From contig OZ116698.1 in the NCBI GenBank assembly GCA_964199315.1, forward strand, positions 23,994,001 to 24,058,000: a stretch of DNA of 64,000 nucleotides. Direction: 5' to 3'. Below, piece after piece: positions 47,096-64,000 of the stretch. The DNA is from Orbicella franksi. Lineage: Eukaryota. Below the pieces are notes generated by a model that saw only the letters and a list, made by a program, of their open reading frames with translations, had not been told where the DNA came from and did not search any database. The first letter of the stretch is position 1. Each line of letters opens with the position of its first letter. The position numbers were made by a program, and so were the translations under genes.

Positions 47096-47951
47096 CTTGC
47101 AAGAAGAAGCTGTGTTTAGTGCAATTTAAGTACAAGCTGATTATTCCAACAGTATTGAAAGGTCTTGAAATGCTTCGGAAGTCTGTAAGACTTACAAGAG
47201 ATTCGTTTCTCAAGGTTGTTGCAGGAACTGTGGCCCCTCTCTGTTTGTTGGACCAATGTGCTCTGAATGCTGGCATATTTTTTACAATGTCGTCAAATTT
47301 TTGCCCCTTTTACGTTAACGTAAAATTAAAAAACCCGACTCCGTTAATGACTCAATGTGGCAGGTAATTTGCGTGAATTTTCCTGCAGGCATCGTAACCG
47401 ACTTTTTTGGAAAGGCATAACAAGTAAACCTCGTTACAGGGTAGATGAAGAAGGTGAAGCGCCAACTATTTTTCATTTGGAATACACCAGTAACGGTGTT
47501 TCTATCCAAATCGATGTCTGGTGGTTGTTTCTAGGGGGAAAGCGCTGGATATTCTTCGTGACATTCATCGCAGGTCATCTGAAAGCGGTTGTCAAGTGGT
47601 TGGTGTGAATAGCCTCGTTAAGCAGTTTTCTCTTAAATTCTTTTGCAATGGTATAAAAGCACTGGCCAAAGAATTCTTGAAATCATGTCCTGACTGCCAA
47701 TTGCATAAGCCGTTTCCAACTGTTGCCCCTCCAGCTCGTCCAATTAGAACGTTTGGGCCTTTCGAGAGATTGCAAGCGGATATCATTGACATGGCTCCAG
47801 GCAAAAAGCGGTCGTTCATGACAAATAACAGGGACCAGTATCGCTATATCTCAGTCATCAAAGACTGCTTTTCTAAGTTTTGCTGGCTATTTCCAACTAA
47901 AACAAAATCCGCAAACGAAGTCCATTCCATTATGCACCATTTTTTCTACTA

Positions 47952-48152
47952 TGTCGGCGATGAAAGCGTTACATTGAAACACGAACTTTGCGTGACAATG
48001 AAATATGAACTACTTGAACATTGAACTATTATGTAATCCATTGTACATGTATTGTGATCGAGAGACGCGAAATAACCAGAGCGGATCAGAGAGAATAAAG
48101 GAGAATCAAAGTGAAACCAGAGTGATTGTTTGCCGTTAAACCATTTACGACA
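47952..48152 (+). repeat. 5' LTR
   Basis: tgtcggcg...tacgaca; 5 mismatches out of 201 versus the 3' LTR by manual comparison. Confidence 0.95.
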
Positions 48153-48156
48153 AAAG

Positions 48157-48173
48157 TGGCGAACCTGCCAGGA
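48157..48173 (+). promoter_or_regulatory. Primer-binding site (probably tRNA-Arg)
   Basis: tggcgaacctgccagga, 4 nt after the 5' LTR. Its complement resembles the 3' end of eukaryotic tRNA-Arg(ACG) as I recall it; unverified. Confidence 0.7.
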
Positions 48174-48196
48174 CCCTGTAACAGGAATCACCGAAT

Positions 48197-51100
48197 ATGG
48201 CGAAAACAGTTGAACAATTGACCAAAGCGATCGACGCGAAGCTTCAACTACTCAAGCTTACGCAAGACCAAACAACTAGCGCAATTGAGAAGGAAAACAT
48301 CACGAGCGTGGAGAGATTACGGAATACGTTGAAGAAGAAGGTGGAAGAGGTCCACGACTTTAAGACTACCGTACAAGAAATGATGTTTGAAGCAGGGAAC
48401 AAAGAAGAAGAAATCCTGGAATGGAGTGCGAATATTGAAGAAGGTGTGGGTGAATTTGAGAAAACAATCGATCACCTCAGCGCAGCGATTAAGGAATTTC
48501 AGAGCAGTGAAACGCAAGCCGCGAAAAAAGAAGAAGAGGAGCGTGCCGCACAGCTCAGGGAGAAAAAGTACGAAGAAGAAATGCGATTCGAAAAAGCCAA
48601 ATTGGAGCAAAAGCTCAAGTACGAGAAGAAGATCGACGAGAAAAAGGATCAAAACATCAACGCGAAACTGCCTAAACTTGTCATCACTCACTTCAAAGGC
48701 ACTCCCGCCGACTGGCTGCGATTTTGGGGTCAGTTTTCAGCGGAAATTGACGCAGCAGATATTTCGAAAATCACGAAGTTTACCTACCTGAAGGAACTCT
48801 TGGAGCCACATGTTCGATCCTCAATAGATGGCCTCCCGTTTACCACAGAAGGCTACGAACGAGCGAAGAATATACTAAAACAAAATATGGAAAAGAAAGC
48901 GAGATTGTCAACGCTTACGTAAGCGTCATTATGTCCCTGCCGACGATTCATGGAACAAACCCAAACAAGATCTTAGAGTTCTATGAAAAGCTGTGCTCAA
49001 ACGTACAGTCCCTGGAAACCATGGGCAAGTTAGGAGAGGTGAATGGGTACGTTCAAATGACTCTGAACAAGCTGGAAGGGATCAGAGGAGATTTAGTCCG
49101 TACCGATGATGATTGACAGGAATGGGAGTTCCTGCAGCTTCTCGAAGCGTTACGGAAGTGGACCGTGAGAAACCCGCCGAAACTCGAAGAAGGGGTTGAT
49201 CAAGAAAAGCTGCCACCATTCAAGCCACCATTCAAACCGCCTTTTAAACCACCAATCAGACCACCTTTCAAGCCACCATTCAAACCACCATTCAAGCCAC
49301 TCACGTCAAGAAGTTTTCAAGCCAACCAACGAGAGCCAAAGAGAAGGCCATGCGTTTACTGCGAAAGCCCAAGTCACCAATCCACTAATTGCAACAGAGT
49401 TACCACGGTCCCAGAGCGAAGAAAACAGCTGATCTTAAAACAACTATGTTTTAATTGTACCGGCGCCAATCACAGGGTCGAAGAGTGCCGCTGTGTTTCA
49501 AAATGCATGTTCTGCCGAAGGAGACACCTCTCGTCGATCTGCGAGAACACTTCCGGATCCCAGCAACCCGAGCATATGTTAGTTGCCACTGGAAGAAGCT
49601 CAGTAACCTACCCGATGGTCGTGGTAGACGTAGGTGGTATACGGTGCCGTGCGCTGTTGGACACCGGAGCCGGAAGTTCATACGCCTCTGCAGCGTTACT
49701 CGATCGACTAGGAAAGCGACCAGTGCGAAAGGAGTTCCGAAGGATCGAAATGATGATGCAAACTACAGATAAAGAAATCAAAGTCCATGACGTAGTGATC
49801 AAAAACCTATCTGGGGATTTTCATCTGCGAACAGAAGTAACCAAGGTGAACCGTGGTGTGCTGTTAAATTTAACAAATCCCAGGTACAAGGACATGGTGA
49901 CACGGTACGACCACTTGAAAGGGATAGTAATGGATGATGTTGACGCGAAAAGAGAGCTCCCTGTACATCTAATTCTCGGTACTAGCGAGTATGCAAGGAT
50001 CAAGACGGAGACCACACCCAAGATAGGACAACCTGGAGAACCGATTGCAGAACTGACACGCCTAGGATGGACCATCATGTCTCCTGGAAGTGAGCCCGAT
50101 CTTACTAACATGTTTCTAACCCAGACCTCCACGGTAGATTATGAGGCACTTTGCAGACTCGATGTACTTGGATTGGAGGACCGACCAGTTGGTGATCAGT
50201 GTCTCGTGTATGAAGAATTTAAGGAACAACTTGAGAGAAGTCCTGAAGGATGGTATGAAACAAGTCTTCTCTGGAAGGGTAATCATCCACCCTTACCCAA
50301 CAACAAGTACGAAAGTTTGAAGCGATTGGATAACCTAGTGAGAAAACTAGAAAAACAGCCAGGCATGTTGGAGAAGTATGACGACATCATCCAAGATCAG
50401 TTGGCACAAGGAATAGTCGAACGGGCGCTGAAGGAACCAGAAGGAAGAGAGTTCTACCTTCCACACAAAGCCGTGATACGAGAAACAGCAGAGAGTACGA
50501 AGATCCGTATCGTCTACGATGCATCTGCGCGAGCCAACAGAGAAGCACCTTCCCTTAATGAGTGTTTAGAGACGGGTCTACCCTTACAGAACAAACTTTG
50601 GAGTGTACTCATCAGGAATAGATTCCACCCCGTGGCCTTAGCAGGCGATCTAAAACAGGCTTTCTTGCAAGTAAGGATACGAGAGGAAGACCGAGACGTA
50701 ATGCGATTTCATTGGTTGAAAGACCTGGAAACAAAGCAAGTGGAAACTCTAAGATTCACGAGAGCACTTTTCGGGCTGTCCACATCACCATTTCTACTCG
50801 GAGGAGTCATTGACCAACACTTGCAAAATCTTCAGCACATTTTCCCAAACGAAGTGGAGGAGATCAGACGAAGCCTCTACGTAGATGACTTGATCAGCGG
50901 TGGTGAAACTGTCACCGACACACAACATTTGAAACAAACATCTCAGTCCATCTTCAGAGGAGGAAAATTCTAGCTGCACAAATGGCATTCAAATGTACCC
51001 TCCCTGGAAGGGCCAACACCTTTAGAAGAAACGAAAACGGAAGAGGAACAACCCACCACACCCTTAGATGCAAGCCAGAGTTATGCCAAGTGCCAGATGG

Positions 51101-52535
51101 GAGTTAAGACAGGAGAGACGAAACTGCTTGGTGTACCATGGAACAAAACCGAGGACACAATCGAAGTAAACTTTCTCGGTCCGATCATCAATGTAACGAA
51201 GAGGGAAGTCCTCGGGGAAATCGCCAAGATATACGACCCACTGGGATTAGCGTCACCCGTCACCCTGGTGGGAAAAATGCTGAATCGAGAAGCGTCAGTG
51301 ATGCCCGAACGCCATGGGACTATGAGCTACCCAAAGAACTAAAGAGCATGTGGGAGAGCTGAGAAGGAGCCCTGCCAGAAAAAGTAGTGGTGTCAAGAAG
51401 CCTTGCCAAACACCAAGAGAAAATCCAAAGCATCAACCTCCACGCTTTCGGAGATGGCAGCGGCAAGGGCGTATTAGCAGCAGTATACTCAGTCACACAT
51501 CAACCATCTAGCGTAACCCAAGGTCTGGTAGCTGCAAAGTCCAGGCTTGCGAAGAAAGGGTTGACAATACCAAGGCTCGAACTAGTGGCTGGACATATGG
51601 CAACCAATCTCGTGCACAACCTGAAAGATGCTCTACAAGGGTTCCCAATAACAAGTGTCCACTGTTGGCTTGACAGCAGCGTTGCTCTTCACTGGATCAG
51701 AGGGGGTGGAAACTACAGTTTGTCAGCAAACGGGTGCAGAAAATCCAGGAGAAGCATTACATCCAGTGGCGGCATGTTAGTTCAAAGGAAAACCCTGCTG
51801 ATCTCGGAAGCCGAGGTGGAGAAGTAAATGAAACCTCAGACCTGTGGTGGAATGGACCACCTTGGTTAGCACAGCCACAGAATTGGCCACCGGATATCGT
51901 CACCAGTCCAACCAAAGAAACGCAAGCTGAAAAAAAACTCATCAAAGAAGTCCTTGCACTCACCATTGAAACCAATGACGAACTAGATCAGTTGATGCAA
52001 AAGTGGGATCTATGAAAAACCATCCGAGTTGGTTCGTGGGTTTCTCGATTTATCCGAAACTGCAGAGCTTAACGTCAACAGAGTACCACCGGACCAATCA
52101 CCACTGAGGAGACCAACAGCCAGATCGAGTTCTGGGAACGACGAACACAGATCAGATGCCAAAGCACGACCAAGTTTCAAGAAGATCAGTTACGACTCAA
52201 TCTTCAGAAGAACAAAGACGGACTCTACGAGTGCAGAGGCCGTATCCAGGGAGACTATCCAATCTACCTGCCTGACGACGCGCTGTTCAGTGGGAAGCTG
52301 GTTATGTACGTTCACACACAAACTCTCCACGGGGGAGTTAGTTTGACGATGACAAAGATAAGAGAAAAGTATTGGATACCACGTCTCAGAAGACTACCAA
52401 AGCAAGTGATAAGAAAGTGTCATGGCTGCAAAAGATTTCAAGTCGCTGCACTAGCACTGTCGCTGCACTACCCTGTAAATTTAGTTAGCATCGGGCAGGC
52501 GAAGAGCCACCCTGTGGATATACTGCCCGAAATGC

Positions 52536-52595
<60 letters not shown>

Positions 52596-53668
52596 TAGCA
52601 AACCCGCCGACAGGAAACCTGCCTAAGGAGAGAACAGAAGGATCAATGCCCTTCAAGTTCATTGGGGTTGACTTCGCTGGTCCTGTCAAGTACTTTAGCA
52701 AGAACAGGAAAGAAATGAAAGCTTACATCGTTCTATATGCATGCAGCCTTACCCGAGCCGTGTACCTGGAGCTGTTACCAGATCAGACCACACAAGAGTT
52801 CCTACGCAGTTTAAAGCGTTTCATAGCAAGACGTGGACGGCCGGAAAAAATCTTCTCTGACTACGGGAAGACCTTCGTTGCAACGTCAAAATGGTTGGAG
52901 AAGATCCGACAAGATGAAAAGATAAACGACTGGCTAGCTAAACAAAGGATCACATGGCAATTTAACCTCAGCAGAGCCCCATGGTGGGGCGGCCAGTTCG
53001 AAAGGTTGATCGGGGTGATGAAGCAAAGCATGTACAAGGCTATTGGAAATGGAAACCTGCGCTGGCATGAGCCAGAGGAGGTGATCTTAGACGTGGAGAC
53101 AACCGTGAACAACAGACCTCTTGGATACGTAGAGGACGACGTTCAATTGCCAGTGCTGACCCCCAGCCTTATGCTGTATGGGCAACCCAACCAGATACCC
53201 GAAGAAGAACCAATGGGTATAGAAGATGTTAACCTCAGAAAACGAGCCAGGTACATCTGAAGATGCAAAGACGTCCTGTGGACAAGATGGGAAACAGAGT
53301 ACCTCAAGGCCCTCAGAGAGCGTCACAACCTCAACCATAAAACGAAGGAAACAACCTTGACACGTGGAGATGTAGTACTCATCAAGGGGGAGGAACGCAA
53401 CAGAGGGAAATGGAAGATTGGCATAGTGGAACAACTGATTCAAGGACGAGATGGAGTAGTCAGAGGGGCGCGGCTTAGAGCTGGGAAGTCATACTTAGAG
53501 AGACCGCTGCAGCTGTTATATCCACTCGAATTGACCTGTGACAGACCTGTAGAAGGGAGAGGTGAAATACTTAACTCGAACGCCAGAGAATTCCAACCAA
53601 GAAGAGCCGCAACTGATGCACGCCAGCGAATATGTGCCATAGCGCAACATGAACTGGATGGAAATTAG
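48197..53668 (+). pseudogene. BEL/Pao gag-pol polyprotein, disrupted
   Basis: Gag LPKL...FKG...DW..FW (DUF1759-like); three Cys/His knuckles; protease LLDTGAGSSY; RT LYVDDLI; RNase H LHAFGD; integrase H...GGV...C..C and GVDFAG..SD.G..FERL; C-terminal GDVVLIK..RGKWK. Stops at ~49114, 50971 and 52013 plus several frameshifts. Confidence 0.92.
52457..52593 (+). mobile_element. Short 3' tail of a non-LTR retroelement ending in (TTA)n, inserted in the BEL integrase
   Basis: Flanked by 7-bp direct repeats ACTAGCA (52450-52456 and 52594-52600). Removing it restores FQVAALA-NPPTGNLP. Confidence 0.8.
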
Positions 53669-53773
53669 ACTTGAACTGCATGCTATCATTTTTAGTTTCA
53701 AATTAGTTACAGTTGTACTTTCAAATAGTAGATTTATCACATTCTATATTTGCCTCAAATATGTGAGTCAAAT

Positions 53774-53783
53774 AGGGGGAGCA
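53774..53783 (+). promoter_or_regulatory. Polypurine tract
   Basis: agggggagca immediately before the 3' LTR. Confidence 0.8.
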
Positions 53784-53984
53784 TGTCGGCGATGAAAGCG
53801 TTACATTGAAACATGAACTTTGCGTGACAATGAAATATGAACTACTGGAACATTGAACTATTATGTAATCCATTGTACATGTATTGTGATCGAGAGACGC
53901 GAAATAACCAGAGCGGATAAAAGAGAATAAAGGAGAATCAAAGTGAAACCAGAGTGATTGTTTGCCGTTAAACCATTTACTACA
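53784..53984 (+). repeat. 3' LTR
   Basis: tgtcggcg...tactaca; 201 bp. Confidence 0.95.
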
Positions 53985-54074
53985 TACTATGACGAAGGTA
54001 CTCCAAAATACTTACAGACGGACAATGGGAAGGAATTTATAGCTGAAGTCATCCCACATCGTTGGGGGTGCAAT

Positions 54075-55822: not shown

Positions 55823-56340
55823 CCTGATATTGTAGTCTCGCGCGAAAAGCGTGGGATGTGACATTTTCGGGGCCTGATATTGTAGTCTCACACGAAAAAC
55901 GTGGGGTCTGAGATTGTAGGTGTCATGTTAGGGGCCTGATATTGTAGTCTCGCGCGAAAAACGAGGGGTATGACATTGTCGGGGCTTGATATTGTAAGCT
56001 CGCACCAAAAGCGTGGGGTCTGAGATTGTAGGTGTCATGTTCGGGGCCTGATATTGTAGTCGCGCGCGAAAAACGTGATTGTCGGGGCCTGATATTGTAG
56101 TCTCGCACGAAAAGCGTGGGGTCTGAGATTGTAGGTGTCATGTTCGGGGCCTGATATTGTAGTCTCGCGCGAAAAACGTGGGATCTGGTATTGTCGGGGC
56201 CTGATGTTGTAATCTCGCACGAAAAGCGTGGGGTCTGACATTGTAATCTCGCACGAAAAGCGTGGGGTCTGATATTGTACTATCTTATTAAAGTGCGGTA
56301 TCGGATGTGGATGTTCAAGGCCTGATATTGTAGTTTCGCG
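55823..56340. repeat. Tandem repeat with alternating ~50-bp and 62-bp units (~112-bp higher-order repeat)
   Basis: C(C/T)TGATATTGTA starts at 55823, 55873, 55935, 55985, 56047, 56088, 56150 and 56200. Confidence 0.9.
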
Positions 56341-56510
56341 GGGAGGCTTGCCACCCAAGTAGTGTTGCTGGTGTTTGGGGCCTCTGATGTTTGAAATTTC
56401 TCGCTGAAGCCTGAGTCCTGCCAATGTGCGTTGTATTAAAAACACCCTGAACATGATTAGCGTGAGGAGGCTGAGGAGGGGGTTAAACGTCACGCATAGG
56501 GGGCTGAGCT

Positions 56511-56760
56511 GGAGGGTCTGAGGTGGAGGGTCTGAGGTGGAGGGTCTGAGGTGGAGGGTCTGAGGTGGAGGGTCTGAGGTGGAGGGTCTGAGGTGGAGGG
56601 TCTGAGGTGGAGGGTCTGAGGTGTGGGGTCTGAGGTGGGGGGCCTGGGGCCTGAGATGGGGGTCTGAGGTGGAGGGTCTGAGATGGGGGGGGGGCTGAGA
56701 TGGTGCCTTGAGATGGGGGCCTGAGATGGGGGGTCTGAGATGGGGGGCCTGAGATGGGGA
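56511..56760. repeat. G-rich 14-bp minisatellite (GGAGGGTCTGAGGT)8 decaying into GGGGGCCTGAGAT variants
   Basis: Eight perfect copies at 56511-56622, then degenerate units. Confidence 0.95.
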
Positions 56761-56971
56761 GAACGTTCCAAACCCTGATCGATTTGTGACTGAACGAGGA
56801 AAAGAAAAAGAAAAAAAGAGCCGAAATTTAAACCCAGGCCTCACTAGCTGGGTAAAAAGATAAGAAAAAAGAAGAGAATGAAACAGTCCTTTCAGATGAT
56901 ATGACTAAAGAGAAAATAATAGATTTGTAAAACTAGCTATTAAACCATATGAATAAATAAATATATTGAAT

Positions 56972-57527
56972 ATGTGTGATAAAGGGATTCACAATGAATT
57001 AGCTAAAACAGAAGTAATATGTGTATTTTGCAATAAACAAATTAATCAAAATAATGCTAAAAGAGATGATGCTTGCTGTGAAAATCAAAAGATTGAAAAT
57101 CTAAGTCATCAATATACTTGCATTAGTTGTGGTCGAGTTAATGGGTTTGAAATTGCTGAAGAGTACATTGATTTTCATGAAAACAGATATAGAATAATTA
57201 AAAAATCAATCTGTAATAGGAAATATCATCTGGATAATATCATTAATAATATTTATGAGAAAAATGGTTTGAGTACATCACAAGATAATCGATTTCGGAT
57301 ACATAAGATTTTTACAGAGATCGATAAAATACTACCTCGGATTAATGGAGCTAGAAAAAGAATGATTTCTATCTCGTCTTTTGAAAAAGATCTTAAAGTT
57401 GATGAAGTTGGATTCGAAAAAGATATAAATCAGTCAATCAAATAGGACTTTAGCCTTTTATGATCAGTATTTTAGAAAAATAGTGGAATTAATACGTGAT
57501 AAAATCAAATCTATCATTCGGAAGTAA
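56972..57527 (+). pseudogene. VLTF3 (poxvirus/NCLDV late transcription factor 3)-like protein
   Basis: N-terminal Cys pairs (CVFC, CC, CISCG), then RKYHLDNII and RKRMISIS. A frameshift near 57375 continues into LKKILKLMKLD...*..S.RTLAFYDQYFRKI. This parallels the VLTF3 pattern YKR..HF...RKNFLSYSYVL.K..ELL...LKS..KL..QD..W.KI as I recall it. Confidence 0.6.
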
Positions 57528-57882
57528 ATGTTTTATCATATGTTTTCTCATGATGATCAGTATTAATTAAGATGGAGATAAATCAACTATTATTTCACCT
57601 AAAACAAGTAGACCAAATCCCAAAATAGATCCAAAAACTATTGGGTTTAATGTTAAAGAGCCGGCTAAACTACCAATCGCTGTCAGAGTGACCCCGCCTA
57701 AATGACAAAATAGATGCATCCTTTTATATTATTTGTAAGCTTTCTCAAACAAAGTGTCTTTTATGATAGAATTTATACAAAGCTTTAAGCTCTGCAATCT
57801 CAGTATCTGATAAGGTTGGACTTACATGATTGAAATAAAATATTTTTCTTTTATCTTTCATATATATTATTATTATATTATA

Positions 57883-58707
57883 TCACTCAAAATATGTGCC
57901 TTTTGATTTTTCCGAAAATAAAATCTTATGAAATTCTTTACTGTTTAAATCACAAAGATTTTTAGTGACGCAAATTCTTTGCATTTTATAATGTACATCT
58001 ATTGAAAACATTTTTGTTGAATAACGATTTTGACTAAAATTATCAGTTGTTAGGATATCTGATATACCATCACAAAGACCTACTTTGATTAGATTAATTA
58101 ATTTACAGAACCAAATCATTTTATGTTCATCTCTGTACGCCGATAGTATGGTTTCAGGAATTTTGGTAGAATCTGTTTTTTCAATAGAAAATTTATTTTT
58201 GTAAATCCTAAGAGTAGGTTTGATATATGTGTCATCCAGTAAACCAATTTCATACCCTGTCGAATTAGTGAATTTACTGTCGTGCTTGAATGAAACAAAA
58301 AATGTATAATCTGTATTTTCAGTGAAGTTATCTAAATTTAAGTGACCTCCTTATATTTCAAAACCTTCTTTAGGGTCATAATCTTCTAATAATTTTTGGT
58401 TGTTTAATATCAATTTCCTATTAATTGTTTCAACAGCCGAACCTTGAGAATTACTCATTTGAAAACCGTCAGCATTCAAAATATCAAAATAATATTCAAA
58501 TATTTCCTCATAATAGCTTTGATTTTGTTTTTTGCCAATTACCTTGTAACAATATCTTTGCGGCTTTTACATGACTATAAAGCTGCTTGAAGTTAACTAG
58601 ACTACTATCATCAGACCCTTCTAAAACATTAACAATCTCCAGACCTTCCATATCAAGACCTTTCCTGAAGTGAATTTTATCATCTTGGCTCTCAAAGTAA
58701 TACAGTG
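57883..58707 (-). pseudogene. Remnant of a possible fibre/tail-like viral protein
   Basis: Frameshifted reading includes GLDMEGLEIVNVLEGSDDSSLVNFKQL, resembling the 'L.M....I.NL..P....DA.NK.Y' repeats of viral fibre-like proteins. Confidence 0.3.
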
Positions 58708-58797
58708 CATCATAAAGCTTCTATTGGGCATAAAATCATATAGTTGTTTAAAATTTTTTTTTTTTTCATCTTCTACATCATAATTGGGTATTTTCAT
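58708..58797 (-). pseudogene. 5' stub of the Polinton packaging ATPase (Walker A lost)
   Basis: MKIPNYDV...NFKQLYDFMPNRSFMM matches the leader that precedes the Walker A (F.ML..G.SGSGKT) of Polinton A32/FtsK-like ATPases as I recall them; the homology stops abruptly. Confidence 0.45.
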
Positions 58798-58899
58798 ATA
58801 TACAATTACGTTAGATAAATAAAGATAAGTGTTTTTTGGACACATATTTATAAAGATAAATGCTGTTTTAACAGATAAATAATTTAACATCTGGTTATA

Positions 58900-60389
58900 A
58901 TGGATACTGATAAAATTAGAAAATATGCAGATTCTGAATATGATAGCTATAAAATTGCCAAAGCTATGACTGAAGTGAAAAATGAAATCAAAGATAACGA
59001 ATCAGGGCGGGAAATTGTAATGAGTGATTACTTCAAGACATTACAAGAGCCATTGCTTGACCAACAAGGAAAAAATGATAAACAACAGGATCAACTAATT
59101 GAGCAATTGAAAGAAAACCAGAATACAATTGTTCAGGCCATATCATATAATCCTAAACAAGCAATCTCTCATGATGATAAAACATTACGAGATTAAGAAA
59201 ACATATATGAAGATGATGAAAAAGCTAAAGATGGAGATGAAGGTAAAAATGTAGATGAAGAAGAGGAAGAAAAACCAAGTACAAGTAAAACAAAAATGAC
59301 AGAAGTGAATTTAGATAAAGGTATTAATGAAGAATACAGAAATCTGATGAAAGAAAAAGGTTATGATTTGCCTTCAAAATTACTACAATCTCAGGCTGAT
59401 ATTTCTGAAATAATCAAAAGAGTTGAAAATAAAATAAATCGTGCGGGGAGATATATTAAAGATATTTCAACCCAAAAAGGCCTTCCATTAAAAAAACTGT
59501 CAAAAGTACAACAAACCACTTCTTTGTGTAATAAAACTGAACTACCATATTTCAAAGACTATTTATCAAGATTAGGGAGGCACGGTGTTCTCATGGTTAG
59601 TGCGTTCATCTCCGGATCGAGCGGTCCGGGTTCGAGCCCTGGCCGGGGACATTGTGTTGTGTTCTTGGGCAAGACACTTTACTCTCACAGTGCCTCTCTC
59701 CACCCAGGTGTATAAATGGGTACCGGCGAACTTAATGCTGGGGGTAACCCTGCGATGGACTAGCATCCCATCCAGGGGGGAGTAGAAATACTCCTAGTCG
59801 CTTCATGCTACAGAAACGGGGATAAGCTCCGGCCTGATGGGCCACTTGGCTCGTATGCAGACTTTACCATTTATCAAGATTAGAACATATCAAAGCAGCT
59901 TCTAAATATATGGGAGCTGAGGAGGTATTAGAAAATACAAACAAGCAAAGCGCAATGCTTACAAAATAAACAATAATCAATATGGAGGTTTATTAATTGA
60001 TATGAATGAATTAATGAATAGAATGAAACTTAACGCTTATCGAGGTGGTAAATTAGTTTATCAAGCTGATGCAAACAAATCACTAATTAATTTACTTAGT
60101 TACTAAAAGGTGCAACCCTAAAACAAAATACAGTATGAATGCTGTGAAGAACATGCCATCTCATAAATCATCAGGCAAAACATGAATGATTGGGTTGAGT
60201 GTGATGTATCATCAGGATCCCAAACAACTAACTGATCGTATGAAAATTATAATTGGTTCAATGATTGCTGGTAATAATTCGCCAGTCTTGAAAAATGATT
60301 TGTCTCAAATTAATGATGAATTATTAAAAATAGGAGCAATTGATAAATCACTGCATGAAAAATTGTATAATAAATATCTAACTAATTAA
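58900..60389 (+). pseudogene. Conserved Polinton ORF (PZ-like, C-terminal 'L.DR...I.GS..AGN..NDL..I.DEL' motif), interrupted by a SINE
   Basis: Broken reading across 58900-59196, 59296-59574 and 59884-60389, ending DPKQLTDRMKIIIGSMIAGNNSPVLKNDLSQINDELLKIG. The 'PZ' name is my inference. Confidence 0.6.
59575..59868 (+). mobile_element. Full-length tRNA-derived SINE with a 15-bp TSD
   Basis: Head with box A (tggttagtgcg) and box B (ggttcgagccc); TSD ATTTATCAAGATTAG at 59561-59575 and 59869-59883. Confidence 0.92.
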
Positions 60390-60764
60390 AATGCCTATGA
60401 AGTAAAAAATAATTGCTGCTTAGTTGAAAGGCTTTTCAAAGTAAAGAAGAATGGTGTTTTCCTTTTTGGAATATCTTTTTTCGTTTTAGAGATATTTAAT
60501 CTATGTAAAAGTCGTTTATAATAATTTAAAAGAAAAGGGATCAGAATAGGTAGGATGACAAACAGGACCATTAATTGGCAATAAGATTTACGACAAATTT
60601 AACAAACCCTCAAAAATAACTAATGAAACCAAAGGAGATAAGATTGTAAAACTTCTTCAAAAAGAAAATGCAAAACAGCATACTCAAAATACTGATAAAT
60701 ATCAGTATGTAAAAGTCGTTTATAATAATTTCCTTTTGTGATCATTTTTGTATAATCATATAAT

Positions 60765-62077
60765 ATGATGAACCGAAATTTTAGAAGTCCACAAATTGTT
60801 AAAAGATATGAATATTCATATTACGATCTTCAGACACCACTTAACAGTAACATTGGTGCCAATAATCGGCAAACTAAAGACAATTATTTATTTGTAGTTG
60901 ACAACGCTTCAGAAGCTAACCCTATTGATTGGTATAATAGTTATATCGAGGTCAATTTTAAAGTTCTTCAATTAGATTAAGCTCAGAATGCAGCTAGTAT
61001 TACTGCTGGAACAGGAAATGTTAATACTTTTTTAACATCAATGAATGGTCACACTTTTATCAGAGAAATGCAAGTTGAATGTAATGGTATTACTGTTTAT
61101 AATAATACAAGAGCTAGTACGTGAAAGTTCAAATGTTTTGTCACTTTTAAAGATGACTGAAGAATATCCGACTACCGTTGCCAAAGACAATTTATTTTAT
61201 TTAGATACGAACACAGGAATAGCAGAAGCTCAAACTGATCAAGCATCATGAAATAAAGGTTTTGCCACTCGCAAAATGCTGACTGACGCTGCTAATGAAA
61301 ATAAAATAAGTATTCCATTAAATATATATAGTTACTTTGCTGCTTTCAAAAATAATATACATCCAAATTTAAAAATGAGCATTTTTATTCGTTTACAAAA
61401 TGATAACAATATTATATTGAGATCAAATGCTGCCCCAGATTCAAAAGTGTTGATAACAAAGTTTCAAATATGGTGTCCTAAAATCATTTTTAATGGAGCT
61501 GGAATGAAAACATACAATGAATACTATATAAAACCTAAAGCTTGGAAGTATCTTAAAGAAGACCATGAAATATATTAAACTGCAGCTGTGAGTTCATTTT
61601 TCAGAGTCAGTACTAGTATTTGAAGGCCCAGGCATGTCTTTCTATGGGTCGTTCCAACAGCTTAATATAGTACAGTAATTAAGAACAGAACATTTTTACA
61701 TTTAAAACATTCTCCATTGGAGCAAACAGTAGGCATTTCAGCAAAGCCCAAATAGAAGTCAATAATTCAATATATACCCTCAACCAGAAATGACTTCAGA
61801 AGAAGAAAGTAGGTTATATAGAGCACTTATGAGCTATAATTCAGCTTACAATGACTTTCTTAGCAGAACACTTATCGACCATAGTAACTTCAGAAACCTA
61901 TTTGGAATAATACATTTTGATTTAAGGAATCAACAATCAGACATCAAGGATTCTGTTGCATCATTAACTTTTTGGCATGAGTTGAATGGAGCTAACATTA
62001 CGAATTACACACTCTTGTTCTCCATGAAAGATATTGAACTATACACAAGCAGCGGTTCACTACTTATCAAAGCATAA
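60765..62077 (+). pseudogene. Double-jelly-roll major capsid protein (hexon-like) of the Polinton
   Basis: About 430 codons of beta-rich sequence across stops and frameshifts: IDWYNSYIEVNFKV; FIREMQVECNG; ISIPLN.YSYF; RPRHVFLW; LFGIIHFDLRNQ. Size and position match a Polinton capsid gene. Confidence 0.65.
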
Positions 62078-62159: not shown

Positions 62160-62990
62160 ATAACACCTTATTATCCTCATAAAGTAAAATTAAGTAAAGG
62201 ACAATTAGAAAAGTTTTAAAAAGCTTAAAAAAACAATATCCCAATAAGTGTTCGACTTTATAACAATGAGTTGACTGGACCCAATCAACTAATGCTCACA
62301 AACACTCAAATAAATAAATAAAAAAAATCAATGGCAAATGGAACAGGCTAAGACATTAAAATAAGTAAAAGTCAGATTAGAAAAGCAGTGAAACAGGGCG
62401 GATATCTATGGTCTAATTTAATTTCGCTTGGAACAAAAATGCTTCCAATGGCAACGAATTTAGCTTCTAAAGTGCTTCCAGGTCTTGCTACTGGAGCTCT
62501 TGGATCAATTGGTAATTTCACAATGGATAAAATACTTGGCCAAGGTATTTCTCAAACAGGTGGTCTCCTTATATCTGATTCCAAAATACAGCAGTTAATT
62601 TAATATAAACATCTACTAACACAAGAACAAAAAAGGACATTTTAAATGCTCTTTAAACTGGAGGCACTCTTTATATCAAACCAACTCAAAAACAGATAAA
62701 TGGTGGCTTTCTCGTAGTTTTGAGTTCGGTTGGTATCCCCATTACCATCGATTTCCTTTAAAAAATGTTTGGAAAAGGCTTGAGTGTTCCTAACAGATCT
62801 TTTAGCAGTGGCAAAAATTCAGGTCAGGGTCTATCTGTTTCCCCAAGACCTAATATGCTACCATTTCAAAGTCCATCTGTATGTGGTGGATGGCAAAACA
62901 CAGTTGGATATGGTGTTGAAACCAAAAAAAAACCTCAGAAAGCTTCAGAATTGATTTTAGGCCCCAATTTCACCTCTAAAAGGAATACTG
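62160..62990 (+). pseudogene. Basic core / pX-pVI-like protein with GG(Y/F)L amphipathic segments
   Basis: VKLSKGQLEK; LMLTNTQINK; DIKISKSQIRKAVKQGGYLWSNLISLG..LP.A..LASKVLPGLATGALG; later GGFL. The start codon appears mutated to ATA. Confidence 0.6.
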
Positions 62991-63112
62991 CTTTATTGTA
63001 TTTCGATAGTTTTGGTATGCATTATAGTAACGAATTTCAAAACAGGGCTAAAAGAGATGGTATGAAGGTTATTTACAATAACAATCCTTACCAAAATATT
63101 AAAGCAGTCAGT
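62991..63112 (+). pseudogene. Internal fragment of an adenain-like cysteine protease
   Basis: LYFDSFG and YNNNPYQ motifs; the catalytic His and Cys segments are absent. Confidence 0.7.
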
Positions 63113-63468
63113 CATATTCAATCAAAACTAGGAGAACTGCATACGCGTACACTAGAAGGCAAAAAATACAATTATTGTGGCCCTGGAACTAAATTAGAAG
63201 AGAGATTGGCTTCCGACGATCCTAAATATAGAGATCCAATTAATAATCTTGATAGCATGTGCAAACAACCTGATAGTGATTATAGAATGCAACATCACTT
63301 GCCGACAAACACAAAGCAGATGATCTTATGCTTAAGAGAATATCAGAAATACCATATATGCAACGACCTTGGGGAACTACAGCTGTTCAAGCTATGATCG
63401 CCGGTAAAAGAAAGCTTGGAATTGGTGTTAAACAGAGCAAAAAGAAGCCAAAAAAAAAAAGGTAAAAA
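63113..63468 (+). pseudogene. Parvovirus VP1u-type phospholipase A2 domain protein
   Basis: YNYCGPGTKL...PINNLDSMCKQPDSDY matches the YxGPG and DxxAxxHDxxY motifs with His>Pro; frameshifted C-terminus ADKHKADDLMLKRI. Confidence 0.8.
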
Positions 63469-63469
63469 G

Positions 63470-64000
63470 CTGTCGAGTAAAGAAATAAGTTGGCAACGAC
63501 CATTAGCAGATGAATTATATAAACCCATAAAGCGTAACTTTACTCCACAGCATGTTATTGCAAATCATATTCATTTTGATGAAATATGGCGTTCTGACCT
63601 TACTGAAATGCAACAATTCAGTAAATGGAATAAGGGCTACAGATATCTTCTTATGGTCTTAGATGTGTTTAGTAGATATGCTTGGATTGTACCATTGAAA
63701 GATAAAAAAGGTGAATCTGTTGCTGAAGCATTTAAAACATCTCTAAGGGAGGTGGAAAACCACAATATTTATGGACAGACAAAGGTAAAGAATATTATAA
63801 CAAACACTTGAAAGACTTCTTAGACAAAAATAAAATAGCATTGTACTCAACAGAAAATGAGGAAAAGTCATCTGTTTGTGAAAGATGGAATGAAACCATT
63901 AAGACTAAAATGTGGAAGCAGTTTACTGTTCAAGGTAATACACAGTATTTAGACATCCTACCCAAAATATTGAAACAGTATAATAACACTAAACACAGTT
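63470..64000 (+). pseudogene. Polinton retroviral-like (rve) integrase, partial
   Basis: LADELYKP..RNF; WRSDLTEM; YLLMVLDVFSRYAWIVPLKDK. After a frameshift at ~63745: PQYLWTDKGKEYYN and SSVCERWN.TIK. D-D-E residues are present. Confidence 0.9.

Follow-up and report, generated by a model that had tools for sequence, protein, structure and literature searches.

A VLTF3-like gene in three pieces within a decayed Polinton

The window analysed here, a 64,000 nt stretch of Orbicella franksi DNA, harbours at 56,972–57,527 (forward strand) a single VLTF3-like gene that is now in three pieces. The first is a 157-aa frame (56,972–57,445) that opens with the ATG at 56,972 and carries a Cys/His cluster together with the motifs RKYHL and RKRMISIS. 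The second, containing LKKIL, occupies another frame (57,366–57,425) that is cut by a stop at 57,426–57,428, and the third (57,429–57,527) encodes the last helix and the terminal stop at 57,525–57,527. The Cys-rich region and the motifs on which the original prediction was built are thus all located, LKKIL in a frame separate from the others. When the natural pieces were scored one by one against a 186-position profile of 92 database relatives (alignment A3), they matched it in order, at positions 1–136 (E 3e-51), 138–153 (E 0.02) and 155–186 (E 1e-8), with the remaining 67 of the 70 stop-free segments of 56,700–57,900 giving E 0.2 or worse. About 136 N-terminal codons of the first piece are family-like, covering both zinc sites and the opening helices of the predicted cyclin box, and its remainder is out of frame. 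Because the three pieces match successive stretches of the profile separately, the gene carries two lesions rather than one, namely a frame change at ~57,375–57,385 and the in-frame stop at 57,426–57,428. The single frameshift originally placed near 57,375 therefore stands, but the second lesion had been missed.

A tail out of frame and identical in kind is present in a database protein of 96 % identity, the match of three metagenome contigs of 97 % identity also ends at profile position 136, and gap-free contigs over 56,974–57,410 are available from three other runs, two of which are labelled as other organisms. The runs in which this DNA occurs carry the label coral metagenome or coded organism names. 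As the frame change is common to all of these it is real and old, and an assembly error, considered as its cause, is ruled out by the same protein and contigs. The window copy is almost certainly a dead pseudogene. That its 157-aa product still functions, or has been domesticated by the coral, is extremely improbable. Both the window and the 96 %-identical allele keep 157 codons of the first frame open, and metatranscriptome contigs lie over the gene; against this, the two final helices predicted for the cyclin box are missing from the product, all neighbouring element genes are fragmented, and three polyA runs from a related organism, of which 12–25 % each was read, give a mean depth between 0 and 0.9 over 57,006–57,673. 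Depth in these runs is 0 over the capsid, phospholipase A2 and integrase remnants. Six metatranscriptome runs contain 43–52 % of the sequence words, and in one such run contigs at a depth of ~7, which may be DNA and are no proof of transcription, cover the VLTF3-like gene and its antisense neighbour. The window copy is thus nearly unread in polyA RNA, although its silence is not absolute.

The pseudogene lies at the left end of a decayed Polinton, with integrase, ATPase, capsid-like and putative polymerase remnants beside it; a Polinton context had been proposed from the sequence. Convergent to it on the reverse strand is the remnant of a SLATT-like gene with two transmembrane segments (57,600–57,870; Pfam SLATT_1 E 0.02–0.07 in relatives, below the cut-off). 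This is followed, as in relatives, by the remnant of a long gene on the same strand (57,883–58,657), for which 58,547–58,657 matches at E 6e-4 and 57,883–58,350 was placed by eye from the C-terminus; fibre-like is our own label, the YadA-stalk matches in relatives being weak. Also on the reverse strand are 32 codons of the 5′ end of an A32-type packaging ATPase (58,705–58,800; E 9e-4), which in a relative matches Pox_A32 at E 2e-15. On the forward strand are a fragmented putative major capsid protein gene (60,867–61,987), assigned by matches to relatives, remnants of conserved small basic ORFs belonging to the element (62,160–62,636), an ORF with a phospholipase A2-like domain (62,762–63,397; PF08398 E 6e-6, over cut-off) and a fragmented retroviral-type integrase (63,398–64,000) that runs past the window end. 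The integrase matches rve at E 5e-6 in the window, a fragment below cut-off, and at E 1e-12, over cut-off, in relatives. Within the capsid gene, 61,252–61,575 gives a weak DJR-like Pfam match (E 0.011), and a single-sequence model of the capsid has a pLDDT of 31. Fragments of a putative family-B polymerase gene ~8–10 kb beyond the window end were labelled by eye from TDTDS and NNSVFGKT, motifs of such polymerases; these fragments have no Pfam, PHROG, NCBIfam or PDB match. For the polymerase and capsid assignments the basis is motifs, position and a single weak Pfam match. Among the 21 ORFs of two bounded elements, no Pfam match to an adenovirus-like cysteine protease was obtained, and the fragments may be too short for one.

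Ends can no longer be recognised for the window copy. A search of ~30 kb beyond the window gave no terminal inverted repeat, and within the window a terminus-like pattern is about as frequent as expected by chance (21 matches versus 20.7 expected). The AT-rich element begins on its left with tandem-repeat arrays (55,823–56,757), which show no match to the terminal repeats of relatives and may be what erosion has left of its terminus. Inserted immediately upstream of the VLTF3-like gene, at 56,780–56,860, is a short, very high-copy host repeat with a contig depth of up to 29,000, compared with 64 for the gene. Two repeat insertions within the element, at 59,580–59,870 and 60,385–60,470, are SINE-like by appearance and draw polyA reads that originate elsewhere in the genome, hundreds at the first and tens at the second. 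A fragmented LTR retrotransposon, presumably BEL/Pao-like, was recognised by eye at 48,182–53,668 from gag-like, reverse transcriptase, RNase H and integrase-like frames, the last of which contains a CTG/TTG microsatellite; an 84-bp stretch at 47,949–48,251 and again at 53,721–54,011 may represent its LTRs.

Family membership and predicted fold

The window ORF alone gives no match to Pox_VLTF3 (PF04947) in a Pfam scan, even at E 1, because the end of the matching region is missing from it. Intact members of the family (~185–195 aa) behave differently, with 18 of 20 rescanned database relatives exceeding the gathering cut-off of 25 bits (26–39 bits, E down to 7e-10) and Pox_VLTF3 ranking as the top Pfam family in 17 of the 20 relatives shown. 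Overall, rescanned relatives score 25–39 bits, mostly over positions ~57–165 of the 168 in the Pfam profile; positions 1–56 are mostly unmatched, but one place in the coral's own genome covers 6–162. Segments of other copies in this genome exceed the cut-off in four of five cases, and a direct search with PF04947 identifies eight places over cut-off here and none in 14 control genomes. The Pfam check proposed for the locus thus succeeds for the relatives and fails for the window ORF itself. By hand count, precomputed PF04947 annotations are present on 77 of the 120 homologues listed. The family is large: 1,918 candidates searched with a profile of 16 natural pieces yielded 369 proteins, and 515 clusters (50 % identity) pass E 0.001, equating to hundreds of relatives.

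Eight Cys/His positions, C3-H8-C19-C22 and C43-C44-C58-C61, are conserved in 91–99 % of 82–92 rows, and TFIIB zinc-ribbon matches in relatives are weak (best E 6e-5). A divergent short homologue encoded beside pPolB bridges the VLTF3-like family in a profile comparison (probability 94.9, E 5e-8). The family profile, run against the sequences of solved structures, returned nothing real (best E 0.013), and PHROG and NCBIfam scans added no annotation. A pattern search of IMG/VR, with patterns from alignment A2, gave 41 candidates and no confirmed relatives; 7,996 longer candidate proteins contained none at E 0.01, which is weak evidence, and a phage collection yielded none (best E 0.3). A quick tree of this family plus one PLV-like row (44 rows) had 5 of 41 branches starred and separated the window copy from eight further copies of its genome, with no strong support for the split. 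For 13 natural segments, dS was measurable in 68 of 72 pairs, and dN/dS was below 1 in all 68 (median 0.245), although the pairs are not independent. The copies have diverged under purifying selection, and hence the gene was maintained while its lineages were active.

Modelled with AlphaFold2 from 92 alignment rows, the intact relative P0020 (pLDDT 81, pTM 0.53) consists of a three-stranded ribbon (residues 49–67) and four long helices (91–191). The family is predicted to possess two zinc sites followed by one cyclin-box domain. In a BFVD search with this model only one match passes E 0.001, a 203-aa protein of Tetraselmis viridis virus S1 (TVS1; E 2e-4), and rank 2 is a mimivirus exonuclease. 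The top 50 rows include 16 named VLTF3 or late transcription factor and seven named TFIIB (E 0.006–0.7); the named VLTF3 models are individually weak (E 0.006–0.7, identity 10–27 %). VLTF3 models of cowpox virus, an entomopoxvirus, mimivirus, pandoravirus, marseillevirus and pithovirus are all among the Foldseek matches, such that the structural comparison that had been suggested comes out in favour of viral VLTF3 and TFIIB models, weakly. Foldseek against the PDB gave nothing at E 0.001, its first rows including chains that we take, in part, to be Rap94, Brf and TFIIB. With VIA-align, 30 of the top 31 PDB rows are cyclin-box proteins, some chain identities being presumed, and align with residues 88–192 of the model. 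The best Z is 7.5 (rmsd 2.8, 86 aligned), below 8, and VIA-align itself cautions that helical domains may often reach this level. TFIIB ranks below cyclins, Rb and an ORC-complex chain in this comparison. The cyclin-box fold is therefore moderately supported, with TFIIB and cyclins not separated by VIA-align. TFIIB has two cyclin boxes, whereas the present family carries one predicted box; it is possible that a homodimer of the VLTF3-like factor would restore two.

Taken together, it is very probable that the family of the window gene is homologous to VLTF3. The identity originally proposed is upheld by PF04947 scores over cut-off in intact relatives and by structural matches to VLTF3, TFIIB and cyclin-box proteins. 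That a zinc ribbon and a helical domain merely resemble VLTF3 by chance is highly improbable and already largely refuted: the window ORF alone misses PF04947 and the structural E-values are weak, but Pox_VLTF3 leads in most of the relatives, an independent structure search is enriched for VLTF3, and the short homologue beside pPolB provides a bridge.

Copies in the genome and in metagenomes

A search of the genome produced 47 matches, merged to 39 loci, which is a lower bound. A convergent SLATT-like or fibre-like gene is present within ~10 kb on each side of 36 of these loci and a Polinton core gene of 32, compared with no marker of any kind in 20 control stretches, although the latter (10 kb each) are half as long as the locus regions and the markers derive from the same loci. 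Within this one genome, a survey for the same gene at the same position, as originally suggested for cnidarian Polintons, finds the convergent partner almost throughout. Approximately seven of the 39 loci are likely duplicates, leaving ~32 independent ones. Viewed from the ATPase, whose 49 matches were merged by hand into 33 loci, a VLTF3 match lies no more than 16 kb away in 20 of 33, or in 20 of 29 when four distant ATPases (29–34 % identity) are dropped. The order of genes around the VLTF3-like gene, convergent to the SLATT-like gene, is fixed, and the VLTF3-like gene is tightly linked to Polinton copies.

Polintons characteristically have terminal inverted repeats that begin with AGTAGT, together with a 6-bp target duplication. 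Of 21 sites examined for termini, eight have candidate flanking inverted repeats; six of the eight pairs have AGTAG-type ends and three a perfect 6-bp target duplication, with 14–17 kb enclosed. In metagenomes, a further element marker accompanies 58 of 65 loci, and a core gene is present in 18 of the 26 that are at least 5 kb long. A nearly full single VLTF3-like frame occurs in five of the 65 metagenome loci versus none of 38 other own-genome sites, and no intact copy was found among the own-genome sites.

Some element copies are near-identical and lie 41–120 kb apart (C13 at 23.30/23.42/23.53 Mb and C5 at 15.71/15.83/15.92 Mb), as do further near-identical copies on C15 (12.52/12.56/12.60 Mb) and C4 (16.12/16.18 Mb); such closely spaced copies are likely segmental duplications. 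The polymerase gene occurs in three placements around a VLTF3-to-integrase block of constant order (sites S00, S08, S11, S19, S21 and S30; L021–L022, L039, L045, L107, L108 and L111). It is upstream of VLTF3 on the same strand in 11 of 39 sites, or beyond the integrase, on the same strand in the window and S21 and inverted in S19 and S30; the replication module apparently relocates as a whole. In a rearranged copy on metagenome contigs (L147:2307–11086, L148 and L149) the integrase-to-ATPase block is inverted and lies upstream of a short polymerase remnant and VLTF3. A reverse-transcriptase-like insertion, Penelope-like by eye (GC 48 %), separates the integrase and polymerase remnants of one element (L021:3700–5140). 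HNH endonuclease genes (PF13392) adjoin the integrase in several copies (L025:8031–8612, L107:9699–9998, L111:2027–2563), and in some copies (L006:1169–1441, L010:1615–2256) a Ser/Gln-rich low-complexity stretch precedes the VLTF3-like gene or shares its frame; the database protein P0055 has such a stretch as well.

Two related small viruses on metagenome and IMG/VR contigs (L204:1399–11457 and L205:3084–16672, one contig being 29 kb) encode a 1,500-aa pPolB (PF03175, E 1e-42) and a short VLTF3-like protein of ~150–170 aa with one zinc ribbon and a 94.9 % profile match to A3. They also have up to four tandem, similar-starting ORFs of 410–630 aa with no Pfam match, possibly a multi-capsid module, and may bridge the animal VLTF3-like family to PLVs.

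Function and relation to known systems

The locus is probably best read as the VLTF3-like pseudogene of a decayed Polinton whose intact factor would have been a TFIIB-like late-gene adaptor on the host RNA polymerase; that the intact factor activated transcription using host machinery is, by homology, somewhat favoured on balance. Such a protein would be a small adaptor which, as in TFIIB, would contact the polymerase with its zinc ribbon and either TBP or promoter DNA with its cyclin box. Judging by its homology, the factor probably switched on the late capsid-module genes, late in the replication cycle; the virus-encoded control of late transcription first suggested for it is likewise an inference. 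The scanned ORFs of these elements (14–25 kb) include no recognisable RNA polymerase gene, which makes the host nuclear polymerase the simplest partner, and neither VLTF2 nor other late partner factors were recognised in the elements. Poxvirus A2L has been modelled as a TFIIB derivative (10.1101/2022.11.22.517515). According to PMC8400408, A2L is an essential late factor in whose action TBP is implicated, medusavirus keeps VLTF3 without an RNA polymerase of its own, and the vaccinia factor works with the viral polymerase and three partner factors.

That the same gene instead serves a helper giant virus, the Polinton being virophage-like and its factor steering the helper's RNA polymerase to Polinton late promoters, is possible but unlikely. 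VLTF3 is listed for algal PLVs, some of them reactivated by giant viruses (10.1101/2025.10.09.676808, 10.1101/2022.07.28.501842, PMC9356565), the top structural match is a PLV protein and poxvirus A2L partners a viral polymerase; against this, the literature examined names no helper virus for these elements, core genes of coral polintoviruses are expressed in ordinary coral transcriptomes (PMC11131425), and the elements have an integrase and persist in the nucleus. A broader proposal, that the gene is a fixed core gene of a whole Polinton lineage, a minimal one-cyclin-box TFIIB mimic retargeting host RNA polymerase II and derived from small pPolB viruses, is decidedly speculative and rather unlikely; if true, a hallmark of Nucleocytoviricota would have been inherited from Polinton-like ancestors and not from giant viruses. 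It is improbable, too, that the factor was repurposed, with its cyclin box a decoy or repressor (by competition with TFIIB, or by binding cell-cycle or replication proteins) and not a late-gene activator. The ranking of cyclins, Rb and an ORC-complex chain above TFIIB in the fold search would suit this, as would the second, N-terminal zinc site, a size about half that of many NCLDV VLTF3 models and a conserved basic RKR patch that could bind DNA or be a nuclear signal. However, Z differences of ~1–2 among cyclin-box rows are near ties, the sequence similarity is to VLTF3 and not to cyclins, and a zinc ribbon before a cyclin box is the arrangement of TFIIB. Should the intact factor work with the host polymerase, as in the adaptor reading preferred here, these elements would offer a simple system for the role of VLTF3, which is poorly understood outside poxviruses.

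VLTF3 in a polintovirus subgroup was reportedly described by Krupovic and Koonin in 2016. Such an earlier report is cited by PMC11131425, which itself records a VLTF3 homologue in stony-coral polintoviruses. VLTF3 in coral Polintons is therefore already published, and whilst the original identification is right, the phenomenon is known and the locus itself ordinary; the novelty implied by setting the gene outside the canonical animal Maverick core genes is not supported. The elements of that study are like the present ones in host group, element type and annotation, with a DUF5679 gene, also listed there, seen weakly here; the window copy differs in being a pseudogene. Sections 8 and 9 of that study contain no motif, architecture, synteny or selection analysis, and its cluster and the present family are matched by annotation. 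What is added here is the anatomy of a compact 185–195-aa family with two zinc sites and one predicted cyclin box, together with its hundreds of relatives, its fixed convergent position relative to the SLATT-like gene and its past purifying selection. Elsewhere, VLTF3 copies in the genome of the sea anemone E. pallida, a cnidarian, were read as isolated among animal genes (PMC5294986), PMC11253617 and PMC3493329 call VLTF3 confined to Nucleocytoviricota, and 'VLTF' is absent from the main text of PMC4642659. A literature search, with most subscription papers outside it, found no functional test or phylogeny of animal-Polinton VLTF3. Finding VLTF3 on its own in coral metagenomes or in the genome of an animal is not enough to diagnose a giant virus.

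With regard to the better known systems, the family resembles poxvirus A2L and NCLDV VLTF3 (PF04947, NCVOG0262) in the PF04947 match of intact relatives and in the zinc ribbon and predicted cyclin box. It differs in length, at ~185–195 aa versus 213–524 aa for the named full-length models (identity 10–27 %), and in belonging to an element without a recognised viral RNA polymerase, VLTF2 or other late factors. The arrangement of a zinc ribbon and then a cyclin box is shared with TFIIB, Brf and Rap94; compared with TFIIB, the family has no significant sequence match to the TFIIB core and possesses an extra N-terminal C-H-C-C site. VLTF3 is listed for PLVs and other small viruses in several reports (PMC9356565, PMC8502044, 10.64898/2026.06.19.733378, 10.1101/2022.07.28.501842, 10.1101/2025.10.09.676808). 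As in PLVs and mriyaviruses (the first three of these, and PMC11253617), a short VLTF3 here accompanies a small virus, and the figure keys of two papers list both VLTF3 and SLATT among PLV genes. Mriyaviruses also have VLTF2, and whereas the hosts of PLVs and mriyaviruses are algae or protists, the present gene belongs to an integrase-bearing animal Polinton with AGTAGT termini.
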